Source: Candidatus Poribacteria bacterium WGA-3G
GTDB lineage: Bacteria; Poribacteria; WGA-4E; WGA-3G
Assembly (NCBI GenBank): GCA_000406005.1
Contig: ASZN01000007.1
Location: 937 to 64,936 of the forward strand
DNA length: 64,000 nt
Direction of reading: 5' to 3'
Both the position numbers and the translations under genes were made by a program. Shown one piece after another: positions 51,701 through 64,000 of the stretch (position 1 is the first letter of the stretch; each line of letters opens with the position of its first letter). The notes under the pieces are model-generated. The model saw only the letters and a list, made by a program, of their open reading frames with translations, was not told the DNA's origin and did not search any database.

Positions 51701-53854
51701 ATGGCACGCGAATATCCGATTGAAAACGTGCGCAACATCGGAATTGCAGCACACATAGATGCCGGCAAGACAACGACCACCGAACGAATCCTTTTCTACA
51801 CCGGCAAAAAACATAAAATCGGTGCCGTGGACGACGGCACGGCTGAGATGGATTGGATGGTACAGGAACGCGAACGCGGCGTGACGATCACCGCCGCCGC
51901 AACAACCTGCTTCTGGGATAAACACGCAATTCATCTCATCGATACACCCGGACACGTCGATTTCACAGTAGAAGTAGAACGTTCTTTACGGGTTTTGGAC
52001 GGTGTTGTCGCACTTTTCTGCGCCGTCGGCGGGGTCGAACCCCAATCAGAAACCGTCTGGCAACAAGCCGATCGCTACCAGGTACCACGGATCGTGTTTG
52101 TTAATAAAATGGATAGAGTCGGCGCGAACTACGAACGCGTCTTGGAGATGATGAAAGAACAGTTGGGCGCGAATCCGCTACCCCTCCAACTCCCCATCGG
52201 AGAAGGAACCGAATTTGAAGGCGTTATTGATCTGGTAACACAAAAGGCACTACGCTGGGACGCAGCAGACCAAGGACAAACCTATTTAGAGGCGGAAATC
52301 CCAACTGAATTCCAAGATGAAGTCGAAGCAGCACGAGAAAGCCTCTTTGAGACTGTCGCCGTTGAAGACGAGATACTACTTGAAAAATACTTGGGCGGCG
52401 AAGAAATCACACACGATGAATTAGTGACGGCTGTTCGCACAGCGACGCTAAACGGTGCTTTCGTACCAGTTCTGTGTGGAAGTTCTCTAAAAAATCAAGG
52501 GGTCCAACCGCTACTTGACGCAGTCATCAACTTTTTGCCATCACCCGTTGATGTGCCACCTATTGAAGGCGCAGCACCAGAACCGACCTCCGGCAGCAGA
52601 CGTTCCAAGCGCACAGGAGGTCCCACTGAAACAGATAAAGTGATACGTCCGGCAGACGACACGGCGCCTTTCTCAGCCTTAGCGTTCAAAGTGGCGAGCC
52701 ATCCAACCGTAGACAAACTCGTTTATTGTCGAATCTACTCTGGCACGCTCAGGCGTGGCGAGGCAGTCTACAACGTCCGTTCCCAGAAACGCGAGCGCGT
52801 CAATCGCATTCTACAAATGCACGCCAACAAAGAGGCGGTCTCCGATGCCGCTTATGCCGGCGACATCGTCGCACTCGTCGGGCTTAAAGATACCAAAACA
52901 GCGGATACACTGACAGACCCGAAAGAACCCATTCTGTTAGAATCTATCACTTTTCCCGAACCCGTTATCTCCATCGCTATTGAACCTGAACGCGCAAGCG
53001 ATGCTGACGCACTCGAAGAGACACTCGAAAAATTGATGGACGAAGACCCGACCTTCACCGTCGGAATTGACCAAGAAACCGGACAGCGAATTATCTCCGG
53101 AATGGGTGAACTTCATCTCGAAATCTTGACCGATAGAATGATCCGTGAGTTTGGCGTGAACGCCCGGGTGAGTAAACTCCAAGTATCGTATCGCGAAACC
53201 ATAAGTACCACGGCAGAAGCGCGTGGAAAGCACATCCATAAAACCGATGAAGAAGGTATCTACGGTGATGTACAACTCACCGTGGAACCCTTAGAACGCG
53301 GCGCAGGGTTTCAGTTTGAAGATAACTCCGACGAAACACAGATTCCGAGGCAATACATCCCGTTTATTGAGAAAGCCCTCGAGGGAGCCATGATAACAGG
53401 CCCCCGCATCGGATACCCCATGCAAGATGTGAAGGCAACGCTCACCGGCGGTTCCTATCACCCAACCGATTCCTCGGAGGTCGCCTTCGAGGCAGCAGCC
53501 GTCCACGCCTTCGAGAACGCAGTCAGAAAGGCGAACCCCTTAATCTTAGAGCCGATTATGCGGATACACATCACCGTTCCTGATGAACATGTCGGTAAAG
53601 TTATCGGTGATCTGAATTCCCGGCGCGCACATATGAATGAAAGCGTGGCACAAGACACATCCGAAACAGGAAATACATCGCAATTGCGGCGAGACATCAT
53701 CAACGCTTTTATACCGTTATCAGAAACATTTCAATATACGACACATCTCCGTTCGATGACGCAGGGACGGGGCGCCTTTACGTTGGAATTCTCACACTAC
53801 GAGAGAGTGCCAGAGTCACTTGCACCGGGTGCGAAACTTGCAGGCACGGTTTAA
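51701..53854 (+). CDS. fusA: elongation factor G (stand-alone copy, not in an rpsL-rpsG-fusA-tuf context)
   Basis: [23 protein letters not shown] and NKMDR, plus domains III-V. An approximately 30-aa Arg/Ser/Thr-rich insert ([23 protein letters not shown]) is present. Confidence 0.8.
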
Positions 53855-55032
53855 CGTCCGTGCGCTTTCATCACCGCTCGGAGTTCCGCTAACGGGATCG
53901 CGCGCATCGTTCTACCGTTGCGTCCGGTTGTTGTCGTTGCCATCGTCATCGAATTGACGATAGCCTCCTCAGTCGCCTCAATAACGGCTCCGAAAAGTGA
54001 ACTCAAGTTGCCATTGGTGAGCATCTCAATCTGAAAGGTACCGGCTTCAGTCCGGCTCGGGAAGATGTTCGCAGTAGAAAACGCGATAACGAATTCGCCG
54101 CTACCGTCCGTACTCGGTGTCCCCGTACGCGCAAGTCCGTGTGTCGCGCGGATCGCTAACTGTTTTAACTGGCGATGTGTTAGGGGCGCATCCGTCGCAA
54201 CAACAATAATAAATGAGCCGTCTCTGGTCGGCCTCGGCGGATCAGCGATCTCGCTACCGACCGGCACACCGTCAATTCGCAATTGATGCCGTCTGCCGCC
54301 GTTGGAATTGACGAGGACACCCACTGTCCATCCACCACGATCTTCGGGTAAGACGCGGGAGGATGTACCGATCCCGGCTTTAAACCCGTAGCACCGCATG
54401 CCAGTGCCACCCCCGACACAACCTTCAGCAACGGGACCATCGGTCGCGTTCTCAATGGCTTCAATCGCGTGCTCCGCCGTGACATGCAGCCCGCTGATGT
54501 CGTTCAGACCCCCATCGTAACACTCCGCCACAATCGGTAGCACGATGTTGTTGTCCGGATACCGTTTGACAATGTAACGAACAACACCGTCATGAACCGC
54601 ACCAACACTGAGTGTATTAGTGAGTAGAATCGGGGATTCAACCCACCCGGCTTGGTTAATACGGGCAATACCCGTCGCTTCGCCGTTACCGTGAATCGTA
54701 TGTGCCGCACCGAACAGGCGCGCCGTCCAGATATCATCACTCGGAATGACAGCAGTGACACCCGTACGAATCGAATCACCTTCAGTCAAGGTAACGTGTC
54801 CGACTTTCACGCCAGAGACATCTGTAATCGCATTGTGCGTACCCGTCGGAAGCCTCCCGATCTGAATGCCGATGTCGCGAGCGCGCGCACGGACCTCCGA
54901 TCTTTCTCCGGGTTCGGCAGCGACACCACATATAGCATCCGTCCACAACACGACGATGATAACGGCGAAGCACACAATTTTCGTGTCACCCAAAATTACA
55001 CGGTATTGAACCCATTTAAACAACTTCTGCAT
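53851..55032 (-). CDS. P1/S58 (DmpA-type) aminopeptidase family protein
   Basis: [18 protein letters not shown], a [21 protein letters not shown]-type nucleophile region, and an N-terminal TM/signal. Confidence 0.65.
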
Positions 55033-55570
55033 ATTCTAATTGATCCTTATAGATTTCGCGAATTTGGTTAAAGATAGCAATATATGCTGGAAGCCGGTAG
55101 TCAGGATAACTCCACTCCCACGGCTGGAACGTTTTACGATAAAAGCGGAGCGTAATCTCCGCATAAATGCCATCACGGAGATAGAGACGGTGCGCGTGAT
55201 CCTTCGTGGATGCAAGCACTAACTTTGCCAAACAGAGGTAACCCGCGTCTAAATTAACGCGCCGTGCCTCGCAATTCGGCTTTTTTAATGCAAATGTTTG
55301 CTCCACTGTATTCGTGAACACCTTCATCTCTGCCAACGTACCGGCATCAACGAGCCTTTCAAAACTGATAAATTGTCTCTGGATGTTCGGTCCCATCTCG
55401 GTTTCATAATAGCTTGTGCTTGTAAAAGGCATCAACTCGCTTGTAAAGTCAATAGGTCCGAGACGTTGTCGAAGTTCGGCATAAACGGTCGACAGGAGGC
55501 AAGGGTCCGTTGTCAGCACACCAATAACGGCTTTAACAGGTTGCGGCGTTGTAATGGTTCCCATATTCAC
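55016..55570 (-). CDS. DUF4416 family protein
   Basis: Pattern PVKAVIGVL...LGPIDFTSELMPFTSTSYYETEMGPNIQRQF...K.FTN.VE recalled from DUF4416 members. Confidence 0.5.
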   Translation of the reverse strand: MNMGTITTPQPVKAVIGVLTTDPCLLSTVYAELRQRLGPIDFTSELMPFTSTSYYETEMGPNIQRQFISFERLVDAGTLAEMKVFTNTVEQTFALKKPNCEARRVNLDAGYLCLAKLVLASTKDHAHRLYLRDGIYAEITLRFYRKTFQPWEWSYPDYRLPAYIAIFNQIREIYKDQLEYAEVV

Positions 55571-55867: not shown

Positions 55868-55988
55868 ATTCTGTTATGCTATTCTATGTCGCCATATTGA
55901 AACGGAAAAGTATCTGGGAGGCAGACTTTTTCGCAAAGCCTATTCATAAAAGCTGCGTAACCACCGCCAAATAGGGGGACTCTATTCA

Positions 55989-58900
55989 GTGAACAAAAAG
56001 TCCAACCAGAAAAACACGAGAATCTCATTTGCCAAATCAAAAGTTCGGACGAAACTCCCGAATCTTATAGAAACCCAAAAACTTTCGTATGACGCCTTTT
56101 TACAGCGAAACGTCTCACCTAATGAACGAGCAGATGCAGGCCTCCAAGCCGTGTTTAAGGAAATATTTCCGGAAGAAGATACGGAGAAAGGCATTAAAAG
56201 TGGCATTCGCGATTTTTCGGAAGCCAACAGCCTTGAATTCGTCAATTACACCCTCGGTACACCGAAATATACCTTACAAGAGTGCATCGCGCGCGGGGTA
56301 ACCTATCAAGTATCCCTCACAGCACGCATCATGCTCATCCTACGCGAAGAAGACCCAGACGCCGACGAACCGCACGTCGTAGATATCCGAGAATCAGATG
56401 TCTATCTCGGCGAAATACCATTAATGACAGAGAACGGTAGTTTTATTGTTAATGGCAGCGAACGTGTGATCGTGAGCCAGTTACATCGCTCACCAGGTGT
56501 CATCTTTCTTGAAAAATCGTTACCGACTGGAAGACGTACGCTGACAGCGCAAATCATCCCGTATCGAGGCGCATGGGTCGAATTTGAAATAGATACCAAG
56601 GATCAGATTTATGTCCGAATCGACAAACGCAGAAAATTGCCGGCTACAGTGCTACTCCGCGCACTCGGATGGCAGACCGATGCCGACATCCTGAAACTTT
56701 ATGCCAAAACGGAACGCCTTGTACTCGCCGGATGGCAAGTTACATCCGTTGAAGGACCCGCAATACAGGTTAAACCGGGCGATTTACTCGACCCCGCAGA
56801 AGTCCGACAGGCGAAAAAGGATTATCCAGATATTGAGGTCGAGAAGTATTATCGCGTTACTAAACCTGAGAAAGATTGCCCGCTTGAAGTCGGGCAAGGA
56901 CTGACATCTCAAGAACGCACAAAGCACCGCAGAAAATGGAAAGGGTTTGAAACAGAACTGTTCCAACGCGTCGTTGATACCCACAACAGTGGCTGTGAAT
57001 TCAGAATCGGGCAGGTACTAACGAACTCAGAATATGAGGAGGCGCGCACACGATACGAGAAAAAAGCGTTCACTGCTGAGCAGATCGTACCCGATAACGC
57101 CCAGGACAGGGTCTGTGCTAAAGACATTAGCCATCAAGAAACCGGAGAAGTACTCCTTACAGCAAATACGCTACTCACAGAAACCGAGTTGGAACGTCTC
57201 AAAGAGGCCGGCGTTGAAGCACTCACAGTACTCGATGAAGAGGACTGCCAGCATATTGGACTTTTGCGCAACACCTTGGGAAGCGACCGACAAGCAGACT
57301 ACGGTTCACAACACAGCCTACAGGATGCAGCACTCCTTGAGATATTCCGCGCACTGAGACCCAGCGATACACCCAGTCCAGAGAATGCCCGGAAGCACCT
57401 CTCATGGCTGCTTTTTGACGCACACCGGTATGATTTAGGCGTCGTTGGAAGGTATAAACTCAATCAAAAATTTGGGCGTGTTTGCCAGTATTTTAATTTA
57501 ACGCCGGATGAGGCACGCGGACGCAAAGTCGAACAGACGCACGATTATATACCCATTTATGGCGATCTCCCAGAAGAAACACTCCGCACACTGCGTCCCG
57601 AAGATATCGCTGCCACAATTATGTACTTTCTTGATGTACATAATGGGCTTGCACCGATAGACGATCTCGACCACCTCGGAAATCGACGCGTTCGCGTTAT
57701 CGGTGAGCTCCTGGAGAACCAGTTCAGAATGGGTTTACTCCAGATTCGCAGAACCACCCGCGAACGATTGAGCACGAACAACGATATAGCGAAAGTGGTG
57801 CCGTCTTCACTCGTAAACCCGAAACCACTTATGATGGCACTTCGCGAATTCTTCGGGTCAAACCAATTGTCGCAGTTCATGCAACAAATTAATCCGCTCG
57901 ATGAATTGACCCACAAGCGCCGTATCTCAGCAATCGGCCCGGGTGGGCTCCATCGCGATAGAGCAACTGCCGCCGTTCGGGACGTGCACCGGACACATAA
58001 CGGACGCGTTTGCCCATTGGAGACACCGGAAGGACCATCAATCGGACTCATCGTCTCCCTCGCCTGCTACGGACGCATAAATCGTTACGGTTTTATGGAA
58101 ACACCTTACAGCGAACGCGGATGGATTGTGACCGAAATCTTTCATCCAAAATGCCCACTTGAGATTGGACACGAGATTTGCAGTACCGACTATCGCAGTA
58201 CGCTTAAAGACTATCCGGGTTTCGCCGCTGTTGAACATTACGAAACAATCAATGAAATAGGCATTCGGTTGAAAGTTAACGAAACGTCTACTAACGCAGA
58301 ATCAGAAAAATCGGAAGACTTAAACATTGAGCGAGTTTGGCAGATTACTGAAATCTATCATCCAAACTGTACTTTCAAAATTGGAGAAACTATTTCCGAT
58401 ATCGACTATTGGCAGGCACGGCAAAGCTATCCGGGAATCAATGTGGTTCGCTCTGAAACTTTCAACGCTATTGAATATCTAACAGCCGATGAAGAAGATA
58501 CCGCCAACGAAGGGCAACCCGCCCGCATCGCAGCAAAAGCGACACCGCGCAACGTCGTAGAAAACGGTAACTCGGATGCTTCAGGCCACCTACTACCTGT
58601 CCGTAGTGGTGAAGATGTACTCTCCCTTCCGATGGAAAAGATTGATTACATCGGGGTCGCCCCGCAGCAGATTGTCGGTATTTCCGCAGCACTCGTCCCA
58701 TTTCTCGAACACGAAGACGCAAACCGCGCATTGATGGGCGCGAACCACCAACGCCAAGCCGTCCCACTCATCCGTCCACAAGCACCACTCGTCGGAACCG
58801 GAATGGAAGGCCCCGCAGCACGGTACTCAGGCGCACTCATCACAGCAAAACGCGCCGGAACCGTCACAAGTGTTTCCGCTGAAGAAATCCTTATCTATAC

Positions 58901-61697
58901 AGGCGAAGCACTCCACCACGATGAAGGTGAAAATACGTTCAGCGAGATGGGATACGATGTCTATAAACTTCAAAAATTTAAGAGAAGCAACAGCGGCACC
59001 TGTATCCATCAACGTCCAATCGTCGCAGTCGGGGAGAACGTCGAAGCAGAACAAGTTATCGCTGACGGTACCTCCACGGAAAACGGTGAACTCGCACTCG
59101 GTCGAAATATCCTATGCGCTTACATGCCCTGGGGCGGACACAACTACGAAGACTCCATCCTTATAAGTGAAACGCTTATCAAAGACGATACTTTCACCTC
59201 TATTCATATTGAGGAATTTGAAGTTGAGGCGCGCGAAACCAAAGTCGGCCCAGAAGAAATCACACGCGACATACCAAACGTCAGTGAACAACGACTCAGC
59301 CAACTCGACGAAGAAGGGATTATACGCATCGGGAGCGTTGTTAAAGCCGGCAGCATCCTTGTCGGAAAAATTACACCGAAAGGTGAAAGCGAGTACGGAC
59401 CAGAACAGAAACTCCTACAAGCGATCTTCGGTGAAAAAGTTAAAGACGTACGCGACGCATCCACTTATGTACGTCCAGGGGTTGAAGGTGTCGTTATTGA
59501 TGTGAAGGTATTTTCACGGAAAGTCGAGGCAACACAACAGCAAGGCAACTGGAAACAGGGCGACATCGGAGCAGCGAAGGCTAACGATCCTACCCAACTC
59601 CGATACCAATCGAAACGTAAGCAAATTGAGGAAAATTGGCAACAACAGACCACTTCAATCCGCCGCCGAAGAATTGAAGAAATTCGCAATACGCTCATCG
59701 GATGCGAACTCACAGACCCACTTTTAGGGGTCCGTGGCTCCGAACCGCTCGCGAATACCGGTGATACACTGACTCCCGAGATGCTCGACGCTTATACCGA
59801 CGGTTCCATCGCCGAGGAGTATTACACGGTGACGGAAGATACCGCCGAAGAAGCCTTTACTGCTGAACAACACTACAAGGTCACGAGCGTCCCTGAACCC
59901 ATACCGACATTAGCACTTTACACCCCAGACGATGCAGATGATGGATACGATGCAGATGATGGATCCATAGACCCAGACAACGATGAATCTGAAGACTTCG
60001 ATTTTGAAGTGATCGGAATATCCGAAGCGTCAACACCGGGGCTGCTCACCGCAGTCCAGGAATATTTCGGACGCGTTTGTGAGCCGCTCCTCGGAAATAC
60101 CGAAATAAATCTCGAAGAAGATATAACCGCAAGTGAACAGGTCGTACACGCCGGTATTTCACTGATCGGTGCTGATCGGAGTGTCGTCGCAATCGCTTTA
60201 CACAAAGATGCACACTCTGATGACGAAGACACCAAAGATGAATCGGACACCGACTATCTCAACGAAGCGCTCGCTGCAGCCGACGCACGATTCGGTGTAC
60301 TCCTGACAGATGACCTCGAACCCGATAACTGGGAATTCTACGAACTCGACGATAACGCTGAATTAAAAACCCAAACGCGCCCAGAATTTGAGCAGGCTGT
60401 CGTCAGGCAAGTCGAAGATACCGGATGCCCATTCGTTGAAGACGAAGAATTTTCTGAAATCGAATGGAAGAACGTCAGTGAAATCTATTCCGATTTACAA
60501 GCAGACCCATTTTGGCAAATTAAGGAGGTCTTTGATCCGACGTGCCCATTAACACCCGGACAAAACCTTACCGATACGGATTATCAAAAGGCGTGTAGCG
60601 ATTTCCCCGCACACCCTGTAGCTGCCGGACAGCGATTGACTGCAGATGAGCTCCAGGAACTCACGAAGACTGCCAAAGACCCAAAAACTGAAAGCGTGTG
60701 GCACGTTACCGCCGTTTTCGACCCGAAATCTCCACTATCGGTCGGAGAATATGTTTCTGACGCTGACTATCAGAAAGCATGTAAAGCGTGCAGTTTGGCT
60801 TTTTCGGACATCAGCGTTACGGACCCCGAGGTACGAGAACATATTCAACGAATCGAAGAGATGGCACAGGGTCGGATAACCGCTTACACCGAAGAAAAAG
60901 AACAGGCACTTCAACAATTAGAGATGGGGGACGAACTTAAACCGGGGGTTATCAAGCGTGTCAAAGTCTATGTTGCCAGCAAACGTCCTATCTCTGTCGG
61001 CGATAAAATGGCAGGACGCTACGGGAACAAAGGCGTTGTCGCCAAAATCTTGCCTGCGGAAGATATGCCATACCTACCGGACGGTACACCCGTCGAATTG
61101 GTATTGAACCCGTTAGGCGTGCCGTCGCGTATGAACGTCGGGCAAATCTTGGAAATTCACCTCGGATGGGCGTGCCACGAACTCGGTAAACGCGTCGAAT
61201 CCCCTGTATTTGACGGCGCAACCGAAACCGAAGTCTTTAAAATGCTCGATGATACCGACCTACCCGCACGGAGCAAACAGACGGGTAAAAGCATACTCTT
61301 TGACGGTAGAACCGGCGAACCCTTCGCACAGGAAATAACAGTAGGATACGTCTATTTCCTCAAGTTGAACCACCTTGTCGCAGATAAGATGCACGCACGC
61401 TCCACCGGACCTTATTCCCTCGTCACACAACAACCGCTCGGGGGTAAGGCACAGCACGGTGGGCAACGGCTCGGTGAGATGGAAGTTTGGGCATTGGAAG
61501 CTTACGGCGCAGCACACACGCTCCAAGAAATGCTCACCCTCAAATCAGATGATGTCCTCGGCAGAAGAGAAATATACGAATCGGTGGTCAAGGGACTAAA
61601 CCCCGACCCACCAGGAACACCGGAATCGTTCAAAGTGTTAGTCCGTGAACTCCAAACCCTCGGACTCCACGTATCCCTCGACCCAGATGATGAGTAG
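55989..61697 (+). CDS. rpoB: DNA-directed RNA polymerase subunit beta, 1902 aa with several lineage-specific insertions
   Basis: Conserved blocks: GSFIVNGSERVIVSQLHRSPG, RRKLPATVLLRALG, NPLDELTHKRRISAIGPGGL, FLEHEDANRALMGANHQRQAVP, GDKMAGRYGNKGVV, and YFLKLNHLVADKMHARSTGPYSLVTQQPLGGKAQHGGQRLGEMEVWALEAYGAAH. Confidence 0.95.
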   Translation: MNKKSNQKNTRISFAKSKVRTKLPNLIETQKLSYDAFLQRNVSPNERADAGLQAVFKEIFPEEDTEKGIKSGIRDFSEANSLEFVNYTLGTPKYTLQECIARGVTYQVSLTARIMLILREEDPDADEPHVVDIRESDVYLGEIPLMTENGSFIVNGSERVIVSQLHRSPGVIFLEKSLPTGRRTLTAQIIPYRGAWVEFEIDTKDQIYVRIDKRRKLPATVLLRALGWQTDADILKLYAKTERLVLAGWQVTSVEGPAIQVKPGDLLDPAEVRQAKKDYPDIEVEKYYRVTKPEKDCPLEVGQGLTSQERTKHRRKWKGFETELFQRVVDTHNSGCEFRIGQVLTNSEYEEARTRYEKKAFTAEQIVPDNAQDRVCAKDISHQETGEVLLTANTLLTETELERLKEAGVEALTVLDEEDCQHIGLLRNTLGSDRQADYGSQHSLQDAALLEIFRALRPSDTPSPENARKHLSWLLFDAHRYDLGVVGRYKLNQKFGRVCQYFNLTPDEARGRKVEQTHDYIPIYGDLPEETLRTLRPEDIAATIMYFLDVHNGLAPIDDLDHLGNRRVRVIGELLENQFRMGLLQIRRTTRERLSTNNDIAKVVPSSLVNPKPLMMALREFFGSNQLSQFMQQINPLDELTHKRRISAIGPGGLHRDRATAAVRDVHRTHNGRVCPLETPEGPSIGLIVSLACYGRINRYGFMETPYSERGWIVTEIFHPKCPLEIGHEICSTDYRSTLKDYPGFAAVEHYETINEIGIRLKVNETSTNAESEKSEDLNIERVWQITEIYHPNCTFKIGETISDIDYWQARQSYPGINVVRSETFNAIEYLTADEEDTANEGQPARIAAKATPRNVVENGNSDASGHLLPVRSGEDVLSLPMEKIDYIGVAPQQIVGISAALVPFLEHEDANRALMGANHQRQAVPLIRPQAPLVGTGMEGPAARYSGALITAKRAGTVTSVSAEEILIYTGEALHHDEGENTFSEMGYDVYKLQKFKRSNSGTCIHQRPIVAVGENVEAEQVIADGTSTENGELALGRNILCAYMPWGGHNYEDSILISETLIKDDTFTSIHIEEFEVEARETKVGPEEITRDIPNVSEQRLSQLDEEGIIRIGSVVKAGSILVGKITPKGESEYGPEQKLLQAIFGEKVKDVRDASTYVRPGVEGVVIDVKVFSRKVEATQQQGNWKQGDIGAAKANDPTQLRYQSKRKQIEENWQQQTTSIRRRRIEEIRNTLIGCELTDPLLGVRGSEPLANTGDTLTPEMLDAYTDGSIAEEYYTVTEDTAEEAFTAEQHYKVTSVPEPIPTLALYTPDDADDGYDADDGSIDPDNDESEDFDFEVIGISEASTPGLLTAVQEYFGRVCEPLLGNTEINLEEDITASEQVVHAGISLIGADRSVVAIALHKDAHSDDEDTKDESDTDYLNEALAAADARFGVLLTDDLEPDNWEFYELDDNAELKTQTRPEFEQAVVRQVEDTGCPFVEDEEFSEIEWKNVSEIYSDLQADPFWQIKEVFDPTCPLTPGQNLTDTDYQKACSDFPAHPVAAGQRLTADELQELTKTAKDPKTESVWHVTAVFDPKSPLSVGEYVSDADYQKACKACSLAFSDISVTDPEVREHIQRIEEMAQGRITAYTEEKEQALQQLEMGDELKPGVIKRVKVYVASKRPISVGDKMAGRYGNKGVVAKILPAEDMPYLPDGTPVELVLNPLGVPSRMNVGQILEIHLGWACHELGKRVESPVFDGATETEVFKMLDDTDLPARSKQTGKSILFDGRTGEPFAQEITVGYVYFLKLNHLVADKMHARSTGPYSLVTQQPLGGKAQHGGQRLGEMEVWALEAYGAAHTLQEMLTLKSDDVLGRREIYESVVKGLNPDPPGTPESFKVLVRELQTLGLHVSLDPDDE

Positions 61698-61929
61698 TTA
61701 TCAATTTTCAGTACGATTTTTCTCCGAAAAATCTTTCAGTTTTCAGTAGTTGTCAGTTAACAGTACCCAGTTTTCAGTTAAGAGACTTTGGCGAATCAGA
61801 ACCCTCTTAACTTTGACCAACAACTCGATTTCCGATATTTTAAAATAGGCGCGAGTTGTCGGTCAAAACTGTTAACTGAAAGGGAACGTACTCGTTCCCG
61901 TACTGACAACTACCCAAAAAGGAGACCTG

Positions 61930-64000
61930 ATGAACACGGCATTTGACAGCATCTCCATAAAGATAGCCTCGCCTGACCAGATAAAAGACTCAGCGAAGGA
62001 AACCAGTTGCAAATATCGGAAACCCGCTGACGCTACAGATGGAACCTTTAACTGCCCTGAGAAAGGTACCTGCAACTGCGGCGAGGTCAAGAAAGCGGAG
62101 ACTATTAACTACCGATCCTTTCGACCGGAACCCGAAGGCCTTTTTTGTGAGGCGATCTTCGGACCGCAAAAAGATTGGGAATGTAACTGCGGAAAATATA
62201 AGCGAATTAAACACAAAGGCGTGATATGTGACCGCTGCGGCGTTGAGATCACCCAGCAACGCGTCCGTCGAGACCGGCTCGGATATATACAACTCGCCGC
62301 ACCCGTCTCCCATATCTGGTACTTCAAGGGACTCCCATCACGCATCGGCCTCTTCTGCGGACTCTCCACGCGTGATGTTGAACGTGTCCTCTATTTTGAA
62401 GGCTTTATTGTTGTTGAGGTACTTCGGATAGTGACCAAGGTATCTGATCCAGATTGTCCATTGGAAGTTGGGGACATTGTTTCTGATACAATAGGGAATG
62501 CTACTCTATCCAATACCGACTACCGAAAGATGCAAAAGGACTATCCAGGAGGTTTTAGGGCTGAGATACCCTGGCGCGTTGAAAGTGTCCCCGCGGAATG
62601 TCCATTAGAGGTGGGAGATTTAATCTCTGACTATTCCGATGTTCAGAAGGACTATCCGGATTTGAAAGCCTCAATATGCTGTTCCCTTGAACCTAGACAA
62701 GTGTTAACCGAGATAGAATATCAGGAGAATATTAATAGTACGTGGTATAGGTCCCAAAGTGAATGCCGCTTCATTGTTCGTGAAGGTCCAAAAATCTATA
62801 ATACTGAATATAGGACCGAGTATCTACACAAGGATAAATTTCGAGCCGGGACCGGGGCTGAAGTCATTCGCGAGATTCTTAGCAACATCGATCTCGAAGA
62901 AAAAATAAAAGAACTCACCCAAGAACTCGAAGAAACCACGAGCCAACAGAAACGGCTTAAAACCTCCAAGCAGCTAAAGCAGATGTCAGATTTTGCCGCG
63001 GCTGAACAGCGACCCGAATGGATGATCCTTGATGTCATTCCCGTCATACCACCGGATTTAAGACCCCTCGTACCGCTTGAAGGTGGACGGTTCGCAACCA
63101 GCGATCTCAACGATTTATACCGCCGGGTTATCAACCGTAATAATCGACTCCGGAAACTCATACAACTCCGTTCCCCAGAGGTGATCCTCCGAAATGAAAA
63201 ACGGATGTTACAAGAGGCCGTTGATGCCTTCTTCGACAACGGAAGGCACGGTAGACGCGTCACCGGACCCGGGAACCGACCCCTCAAATCCCTCGCTGAG
63301 GTACTCAAAGGGAAAATCGGACGGTTCCGACAGAACCTGCTCGGGAAACGTGTTGACTACTCCGGACGGAGCGTCATCGTTGTCGGACCCGAATTGGGGC
63401 TACATCAATGTGGTATCCCGAAACAGATGGCGGTCGAACTGTTTAAACCGTTTATCATTGAGCGACTTCAGGCTTACGGCTATACGCAAACGATTAAGCG
63501 GGCAAAGCATATCGCCGAACACGTTGACTCCGATTCACCTGTCTGGGAAGTTGTAGAGGAGGTCATCGCCGACCACCCTGTTCTGCTCAACCGTCCACCG
63601 ACGCTGCACCGCCTCGGTATCCAAGCGTTTTTACCGGTGTTGGTCGAAGGTAAATCCATCAGGATTCCGCCACTCGTCTGCAAGGCGTTCAACGCAGATT
63701 TTGATGGCGACCAGATGGCTGTACACGTACCACTGACAGTAGAGGCACAAGCCGAAGCAAAACTGCTCATGCTCAGCAGCCATAACATCCTGAAACCCTC
63801 ACACGGTGACCCTATCGCTGTCCCTGAACTTGATATGGTACTTGGACCCAGTTTCTTGACAAAGACACTACCTGAGTATGCTGAAGATGCCGCACTTTTA
63901 CACGAGGCATACACAACGAGTGACACCTCTCTTTTCGATGAAATTCGTCAGAAACCTTGGTATCACCGCCGCTACTTGCACCCAGAAGATGTTATTACCG
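61930..64000 (+). CDS. rpoC: DNA-directed RNA polymerase subunit beta-prime, 3' partial (runs off the window)
   Basis: GGAGA RBS. Zn finger [33 protein letters not shown], and the catalytic NADFDGDQM at about 63690. The frame is open to nt 64000. It is absent from the ORF track only because no stop lies in the window. Confidence 0.9.

Follow-up and report, generated by a model that had tools for sequence, protein, structure and literature searches.

Multiplication of a small-left-claw-type mini-domain in both large RNA polymerase subunits of Candidatus Poribacteria

The 64,000-nucleotide stretch of DNA analyzed here (the window) stems from contig ASZN01000007.1 of the sponge-associated Candidatus Poribacteria bacterium WGA-3G and contains rpoB and the first part of rpoC, which encode the beta and beta-prime (beta') subunits of RNA polymerase. 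A unit of about 35 to 38 amino acids (aa) is repeated in both proteins. As judged from profile comparisons and a predicted structure, this unit is the Poribacteria form of a universal beta' mini-domain, the small left claw (sLC), and it was copied in this phylum into solvent-exposed, insertion-tolerant loops of both large subunits. The complete explanation, that an sLC-type unit was multiplied in loops of both subunits and spread in the form of cassettes together with nuclease domains, is regarded as quite probable.

Identity of the repeated unit

Every bacterial beta' subunit has a single strand-loop-strand-helix element of about 38 residues that follows the zinc ribbon and precedes the clamp helices (E. 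coli beta' 144-178). This element, beta'-bD2 (CATH 3.30.60.280), was named "small left claw" by Alvarez-Carreno et al. 2024 (PMC11515920). The signature of the Poribacterial unit is W/YxVTxVxDPxCPLxVGxxLSDxEYxxAxxDYPG. In an alignment, the single resident beta' element of other Poribacteria, which is located before "FRAGTGAE", reads as the consensus of this module and shares exact columns with the E. coli beta' element and with "PGDTPLxKKQLLTExEYRE" of the Firmicutes. When 531 distinct units, all from RpoB proteins, were compared by hhalign with an sLC profile built from 75 non-Poribacterial beta' sequences, the probability was 96.8% with an E-value of 2.9e-10 over 29 columns, compared to 0.1% for the reversed control and no more than 1.5% for 30 column shuffles.

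The polymerase genes, the units and the features between them are located in the window as follows, all on the plus strand.

55989..61697: rpoB, RNA polymerase beta subunit, 1902 aa; open reading frame with Pfam Rpb2 domains 1, 2, 3, 6 and 7 and E = 0 against solved beta chains
56730..56837: site 1 (bi4/SI1), unit a, beta aa 248-283; degenerate, without Cys-Pro-Leu
56844..56951: site 1, unit b, beta aa 286-321; found with profiles, predicted strand-loop-bridge-helix pattern in the AlphaFold model
56961..57065: site 1, unit c, beta aa 325-359; of the units the nearest to the universal beta' sLC
57078..57233: canonical BBM2-type repeat of bi4, beta aa 364-415 ("ETGEVLL...LERLKEAGVE"), outside the module family
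58116..58226: site 2 (after E. coli beta R593), unit a, beta aa 710-746
58332..58442: site 2, unit b, beta aa 782-818
60021..60413: degenerate restriction-endonuclease-like domain (HSDR_N_2 or PD-(D/E)xK type) in bi9, beta aa ~1345-1475
60402..60497: site 3 (bi9/SI2), degenerate unit, beta aa ~1472-1503; weak, 10.3 bits in a six-frame scan
60507..60617: site 3, unit a, beta aa 1507-1543; found in 120 of 120 homologs
60618..60692: site 3, half unit (PVxAGQRLTAEE plus helix), beta aa 1544-1568; from the alignment, helix 55-65 in the model
60693..60806: site 3, unit b, beta aa 1569-1606
61930..64000: rpoC, beta', first 690 aa; the gene exits the window
62422..62836: strain-specific rpoC cassette in place of a single sLC element, with units at 62422-62550 (aa 165-207) and 62569-62664 (aa 214-245) and about 25 extra residues
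62671-62754: resident-type unit within the rpoC cassette, aa 248-275

A blind hhalign scan of the foreign sLC profile against the 1902-column profile of the RpoB family placed the top four matches all at unit positions, 328-363 (82.5%, E-value of 1e-5), 1514-1541, 1576-1605 and 261-281. The AlphaFold model of the three site-1 units, calculated with 40 sequences, had a predicted local distance difference test value (pLDDT) of 81.6 and a predicted template modeling score of 0.56, and displayed a periodic order of long strand, loop, short bridge and helix. Comparison of this model with the PDB by Foldseek returned bacterial beta' chains as 37 of the 50 top matches. The best superposition was that on B. 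subtilis beta' (6wvj_D), with 39 columns, a root mean square deviation of 1.2 Å, 31% identity and a probability of 0.99. This predicted fold match supports the assignment, short of proof. The model of the site-3 pair, with a pLDDT of 58.7, is too weak to be used alone; it displayed the same unit pattern and the same enrichment of beta' chains.

With respect to location, the rpoC units are at the bD2 position, after E. coli beta' 148-171, and the eight rpoB copies are in beta, where this family had not been described. The module, which a preliminary description made from the sequence had not recognized, is not new in kind, because profile and predicted structure place it with the universal bD2 element. 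It escaped recognition because there is no Pfam model for it, as Pfam assigned only standard Rpb1 and Rpb2 domains to the complete rpoB and rpoC products and left the units uncovered, and because a profile-to-sequence search of the PDB, which is considered below, came back empty.

Two other assignments were rejected. A zinc- or metal-binding knuckle needs three or four Cys or His ligands vs. one conserved Cys per unit. Other bacteria have Thr or Asn (TPL, TNL) where the units have the Cys of "CPL", and this Cys is missing in site-1 unit a and site-3 unit b, which makes a metal site unlikely. An intein was discarded since no Hint or intein family was among the Pfam matches of rpoB, rpoC and the insertion in a sister beta', and since the units are conserved like ordinary protein.

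Sites, conservation and distribution

Compared to solved beta chains and E. coli beta, the rpoB product contains extra sequence at four positions: aa 236-363, within the bi4/SI1 site and before the one retained BBM2-type repeat (364-415), which can be aligned with the repeat in bi4 of the solved chains; aa 496-529, where a short insert follows the position of E. coli beta 419; aa 710-865, behind R593 of E. coli beta ("ETPYRK^V"); and aa 1179-1616 at the bi9/SI2 site, where the site-3 units are part of a stretch replacing E. coli beta 936-999. No counterpart of E. coli bi11 (1130-1183) was present in the window rpoB in this comparison. Three units in tandem precede the BBM2 repeat in bi4, and about 2.5 units follow the decayed nuclease-like domain in bi9. 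The two units after E. coli beta R593 are limited to this lineage, and two extra units adjoin the resident beta' copy in this strain. A six-frame scan of the full window counted eight units in rpoB (seven clear, one degenerate), three in the visible part of rpoC and none outside of both genes.

The central statement of the preliminary description, that one module of about 35 aa is repeated in beta and beta', holds: a profile of the four strongest rpoB units from sites 2 and 3 detected rpoC units with 28.8 and 10.9 bits and the degenerate site-1 unit a with 7.9 bits, at a maximum of 5.8 bits among 500 shuffles of the same proteins. Site-1 units b and c reached only about 4 bits with this narrow profile, below the shuffle maximum, and scored 40 and 56 bits with a broader Poribacterial beta-unit profile, in addition to their appearance in the blind profile-profile scan; unit a scored 48.9 bits with the broader profile. 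All eight copies listed before are real and within a few bases of the positions given then, while four had been missed (56961-57065, 60618-60692, ~60402-60497 and 62671-62754). The proposal that insertion-tolerant loops host the module agrees with its location in bi4/SI1, after E. coli beta R593, in bi9/SI2 and at the bD2 site of beta', and the module does inflate rpoB, accounting for about 300 of the about 560 residues in excess over E. coli rpoB. The rpoC copies had been interpreted as insertions, which is right for the two extra ones. The third is the resident universal copy, because the unit family is the bD2 element of beta'.

All 120 best homologs of the RpoB protein contained three units at site 1, unit a among them, and two at site 3, and all of those with a source name came from Candidatus Poribacteria. 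A scan for the site-3 pair in one genome per species, covering 185,579 species, yielded 52 loci, again all from Candidatus Poribacteria. Among 1.84 billion representative proteins, a profile of the ten window units detected 64 at an E-value of 0.001 or below, with recognizable units in about 30 clusters. The proteins with real units were RpoB and RpoC of the Poribacteria type and fragments thereof, with four exceptions (P0248, P0251, P0261 and P0245). In 113 distant homologs, identity to the window was 64-79% in the site-1 and site-3 units, 43-53% in the linkers and 89-94% in the catalytic core. The signature residues (W, P, G, Y) and the unit boundaries were kept in every copy. The phylum-wide copies would accordingly be under purifying selection.

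Some other features were observed in and around both genes. The short motif "FTAE(E/Q)xYKVT" is located beside unit arrays at about 59811-59888 and 57056-57086 of the window (rpoB aa ~1275-1300 and 357-366) and is repeated at the N termini of TPR proteins and in cassettes of P0098, P0036 and P0023; apparently, a second small element moves with the cassettes. A perfect 18-nucleotide tandem duplication (ACGATGCAGATGATGGAT, twice) at 59929-59964, coding for DADDGY/DADDGS, is situated in an acidic, poorly conserved part of bi9. The rpoC product carries at aa 20-46 (61987-62067) a 27-residue insert with four cysteines, which follows the position of residue 31 of E. coli beta' and shortly precedes the canonical zinc ribbon. 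This insert is conserved in Poribacterial beta', absent in E. coli and Firmicutes, and may be a second zinc site.

On the upstream side of rpoB, genes for a DUF4416 protein and an S58 peptidase were found on the minus strand (53851-55570), with an EF-G-like gene farther out; the usual rplK-rplA-rplJ-rplL genes do not precede rpoB, and the gene order is identical in sister genomes. In the spacer between rpoB and rpoC (~61747-61911), contig depth rises from about 15x to 900-2300x, many contigs end loose in the metagenome runs X2, X3 and X5, and no alignment with the sister genome was obtained. Partial matches of about 80% are present elsewhere in the Poribacterial loci L004, L010 and L012. The spacer thus resembles a dispersed repeat of high copy number, in which the motif TTTTCAGT is abundant.

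Polymorphic copies and nuclease domains

The old copies are conserved, the young ones polymorphic. The site-2 pair (58116-58442) was found only in the six closest relatives, with an occupancy of zero elsewhere, and this site reads "ETPYHKVENG..VEYLTAD" in most Poribacteria. Over the operon, the DNA of the window and that of the sister genome L002 (on a 6.0-Mb contig) share about 98% identity except for the spacer and for 62422-62836, where L002 has one sLC unit (about 100 nucleotides) and the window a 415-nucleotide cassette with three units and about 25 additional residues; the flanks of this cassette are 100% identical to L002 and the interior is replaced. Both rpoC alleles coexist in runs X2 and X5, with breakpoints exactly at 62421|62422 and 62836|62837. 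The cassette allele, without any difference from the window, had a depth of 18 in X2 and 63 in X5, and the single-unit allele one of 182 and 327, respectively. The rpoC cassette is a strain-level allele that exists beside the single-unit allele.

Variation of the same kind was found at the trigger loop. The RpoB proteins of L002 and L004 are each 98% identical to that of the window, and the beta' proteins of these sisters comprise 2341 aa (L002, 15891-22916) and 1932 aa (L004, 15876-21674). Their excess is an insertion of about 550 to 960 aa in the SBHM at the trigger-loop (SI3) site, with 18 units in L002 and 12 in L004, and a more distant Poribacterial beta' of 2202 aa contains an array of the same kind.

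Stand-alone proteins similar to beta' were also found. P0133 (1068 aa, L003 10001-13207) is encoded on the 6.0-Mb contig of L002, at a distance of about 1.5 Mb. Its sequence is complete from the N- to the C-terminal motifs, its catalytic NADFDGD motif is changed to NAGSDNNK and the trigger-loop TFHxGG is missing, features shared by P0140, P0145 and P0146. From their sequences, the members of this group look like catalytically dead beta' paralogs. A second group of beta'-like paralogs, P0128-P0131 (about 1160 aa), keeps DADFDGD.

Nuclease domains adjoin unit arrays in several proteins. In the L002 beta', an HNH motif at aa 1319-1361 is followed in frame by "KYGKDW" and a unit. An HNH-linker-unit cassette is also present at site 3 of the P0061 RpoB and at a fourth site, after E. 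coli beta 419, in the RpoB proteins P0010, P0033, P0036, P0098 and P0112, there with three to about six units, so that HNH and units occur together in frame at three different positions of beta and beta'. At the fourth site, P0025 has two units and no HNH domain, and the window only 34 residues. The HNH assignment is supported by PHROGs phrog_119 (E-value of 1.9e-11); the Pfam HNH model matched in full length, but with 19 bits compared to a cutoff of 21.4.

A second type of nuclease domain is present in a cassette of about 600 aa at the position of the window's site 2 in the P0023 RpoB, which combines units with an HSDR_N_2 domain (25.6 bits at a cutoff of 25). The bi9 domain of the window (60021-60413), which immediately precedes the site-3 units, shares 32% identity over 132 aa (pairwise E-value of 3e-14) with the HSDR_N_2-like domains of P0251 and P0248. 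Its ExK motif is lost and reads IALHK. Pfam gave no match for this segment (aa 1318-1504) even at E = 5, and the nuclease-like nature of the domain rests therefore on the pairwise similarity to P0251 and P0248.

Outside of the polymerase, P0248, P0251 and P0261 contain units together with a membrane segment and TPR repeats, and the fragment P0245 has a restriction-endonuclease domain next to units. The former three, which are the only unit hosts found outside the polymerase, also combine the FTAEExYKVT motif, two HSDR_N_2-like domains, alternating full and half units and a coiled coil. A nuclease-fold domain followed by units is thus the recurring order, in cassettes of both the HNH and the HSDR_N_2 types. 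The position of unit arrays next to nuclease domains suggests how the insertions may have spread.

Alternative explanations and meaning for the phylum

According to the proposed explanation, the copies would have been disseminated in frame, in cassettes that also contained nuclease domains (HNH, PD-(D/E)xK), either by double-strand-break repair or by recombination between alleles, and the nuclease part would decay afterward. Each unit may fold independently, and tandem units may share the long strand, so that the arrays would act as rigid surface extensions of the lobe, the flap base, the clamp and the trigger-loop module. Rather than taking part in catalysis, they might provide surfaces for docking or spacing. 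That domain insertion into the polymerase is still ongoing in Poribacteria, driven by nuclease-bearing cassettes that move among the loops of rpoB and rpoC and other genes, is a tentative proposal only. Such insertion might be maintained by a conflict with phage or with other factors whose targets are polymerase surfaces.

Several results weigh against this explanation. The Foldseek E-values were not significant (at least 0.47), because the match comprises only about 39 residues, and the matched beta' residues were not displayed. A search of all PDB sequences with the beta-unit profile found no polymerase chain, only chance matches (ubiquitin, obestatin), and the homology rests therefore on the profile-profile and fold evidence. 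The link to nucleases is one of co-occurrence only; the window contains no HNH domain, and its PD-(D/E)xK-like domain is without ExK. No homolog of the rpoC cassette was found in a set of 5.8 billion proteins, nor a donor for it among the 782 units of all proteins in hand. In the latter search, the nearest non-orthologous unit to the site-2 pair was about 50% identical and came from the TPR protein P0248; values for the rpoC cassette were lower. The unit copies are 62-74% alike in DNA over 39 nucleotides at most, and no recent intragenic duplication is visible. On the basis of the same DNA comparison, an in-frame repetitive element of the Rickettsia palindromic element type was rejected.

The main alternative is that the units are neutral leftovers of selfish homing-type nuclease cassettes without a role in transcription, tolerated because they landed in surface loops. 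This would suit the young copies. Near-identical strains differ in the presence and number of copies, HNH and restriction-endonuclease-like domains accompany the units at several positions, the same cassette exists in unrelated TPR proteins, and the nuclease domain in bi9 of the window is decayed. It suits the conserved phylum-wide copies less well, since the site-1 and site-3 units are fixed in the phylum and better conserved than the adjacent linkers, with boundaries and signature residues kept in every copy as described above. As an account of the units it is considered improbable.

A second alternative, that the units are ordinary BBM2/BEAN or SBHM/HABAS repeats, might be derived from their location at the classic insertion sites of these modules (bi4, bi9, SI3) and from the description of the older category BBM1 as "similar to the BBM2 motif" by Opalka et al. 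(PMC2939025). It is very unlikely, however, and the preliminary description was right to keep the module apart from both. The unit profile and the canonical BBM2 repeat of the same proteins matched with an hhalign probability of 0.6%, the units read VG[DQ] and do not contain the TG[DE] motif of the BEAN domains in beta (PMC11515920), and no beta chain (E. coli bi4) was among the top 50 Foldseek matches. In addition, each unit has in its model a 10-residue helix and only one long strand, in contrast to the all-beta SBHM. The units resemble the BEAN/BBM2 modules of E. coli bi4 (SI1) in being lineage-specific tandem alpha/beta modules on the surface, at the same site of the beta lobe, and one canonical BBM2 repeat is retained beside them.

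The unit is probably identical with BBM1 of Iyer, Koonin and Aravind 2004, as judged from a second-hand definition of BBM1. According to this definition (PMC1586193), BBM1 is a small module common to beta and beta' and located in the flap SBHM of beta (bi9) in Gracilicutes. The unit family occurs likewise in beta and beta', with the site-3 units at the flap SBHM. BBM1 had been predicted at E. coli bi9, but the crystal structure did not conform (PMC2939025); the Poribacterial units, unlike E. coli bi9, are well formed and multiplied.

Hardly credible, finally, is a function of the units as nucleic-acid-binding modules that would provide extra contacts to DNA or RNA, comparable to the tandem DNA-binding modules of homing endonucleases. 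The units are short, in tandem and, in the cassettes, always C-terminal of a nuclease-fold domain, but several units and linkers look acidic by inspection, for instance, DPxCPLxxGxxLSDxDY, and the parent element in beta' is not known to contact nucleic acids. An assembly artefact or chimeric gene, which the metagenomic source and the breaking of contigs in the high-copy part of the rpoB-rpoC spacer might suggest, is negligible as an explanation, since contigs of the 2018 sponge metagenome run X1 reproduce positions 55900-64000 without a single difference, the site-2 insert (97.6% identical) and the rpoC cassette are both represented in contigs of an independent 2025 study, the 120 best homologs (1650-2352 aa, most on Mb-scale contigs) have the architecture in common, and the reading frames are open.

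For an sLC-type unit speak its size of about 38 aa, the predicted strand-loop-strand-helix fold and the profile-profile probability, together with the resident rpoC copy exactly at the bD2 position. In the survey of polymerase insertions by Alvarez-Carreno et al. (PMC11515920), the sLC comprises beta'-bD2 and beta'-bD7 and is described only in beta', with rare beta' variants that have extra sLC, BEAN and HABAS domains in bD2; BEAN is the insert of beta and HABAS the main insert of beta', and insertions below 50 residues were set aside. The Poribacterial situation differs in three respects. The units are also in beta, at three sites in the window and a fourth in relatives, their arrays at the trigger-loop site comprise up to about 18 units, with strain-variable copy numbers, and the W, CPL and DYP signature is specific for Poribacteria. 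Concerning very large multi-domain arrays in the trigger loop, there is a parallel in the cyanobacterial SI3, an SBHM/HABAS array (Qayyum et al. 2024, PMC10895346), and the sister beta' proteins (1932-2341 aa) are similarly large or larger. The building block in Poribacteria is, in contrast, an sLC-type unit, with one SBHM split by an array that varies in length between close genomes and may include an HNH domain.

The literature searched contained nothing that links Poribacteria or HNH domains to polymerase insertions, and the sLC had been described in beta' only. The mini-domain as such is known, and what is new is its host subunit, the scale and recency of its multiplication, and its association with nucleases. 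The unit array provides a clean phylogenetic marker for Poribacteria, and the unusually large subunits, beta' of up to 2341 aa and beta of up to 2352 aa, deserve attention in structural work.

Lineage-specific insertions into the polymerase have been viewed as the result of an early burst that ceased, with an unclear mechanism (PMC11515920). Against this picture stand an sLC-type unit as a third class of insert, which throughout one phylum has become the dominant building block of such insertions, beta included, an insert content that differs between near-identical genomes, with two alleles in one sponge community, and arrays that are physically linked to nuclease domains. If cassette insertion is indeed ongoing, it would be a living example of the mechanism behind lineage-specific insertions in the polymerase, and if the link to nucleases is causal, the entry of domains into the middle of essential genes would become testable in a natural system.

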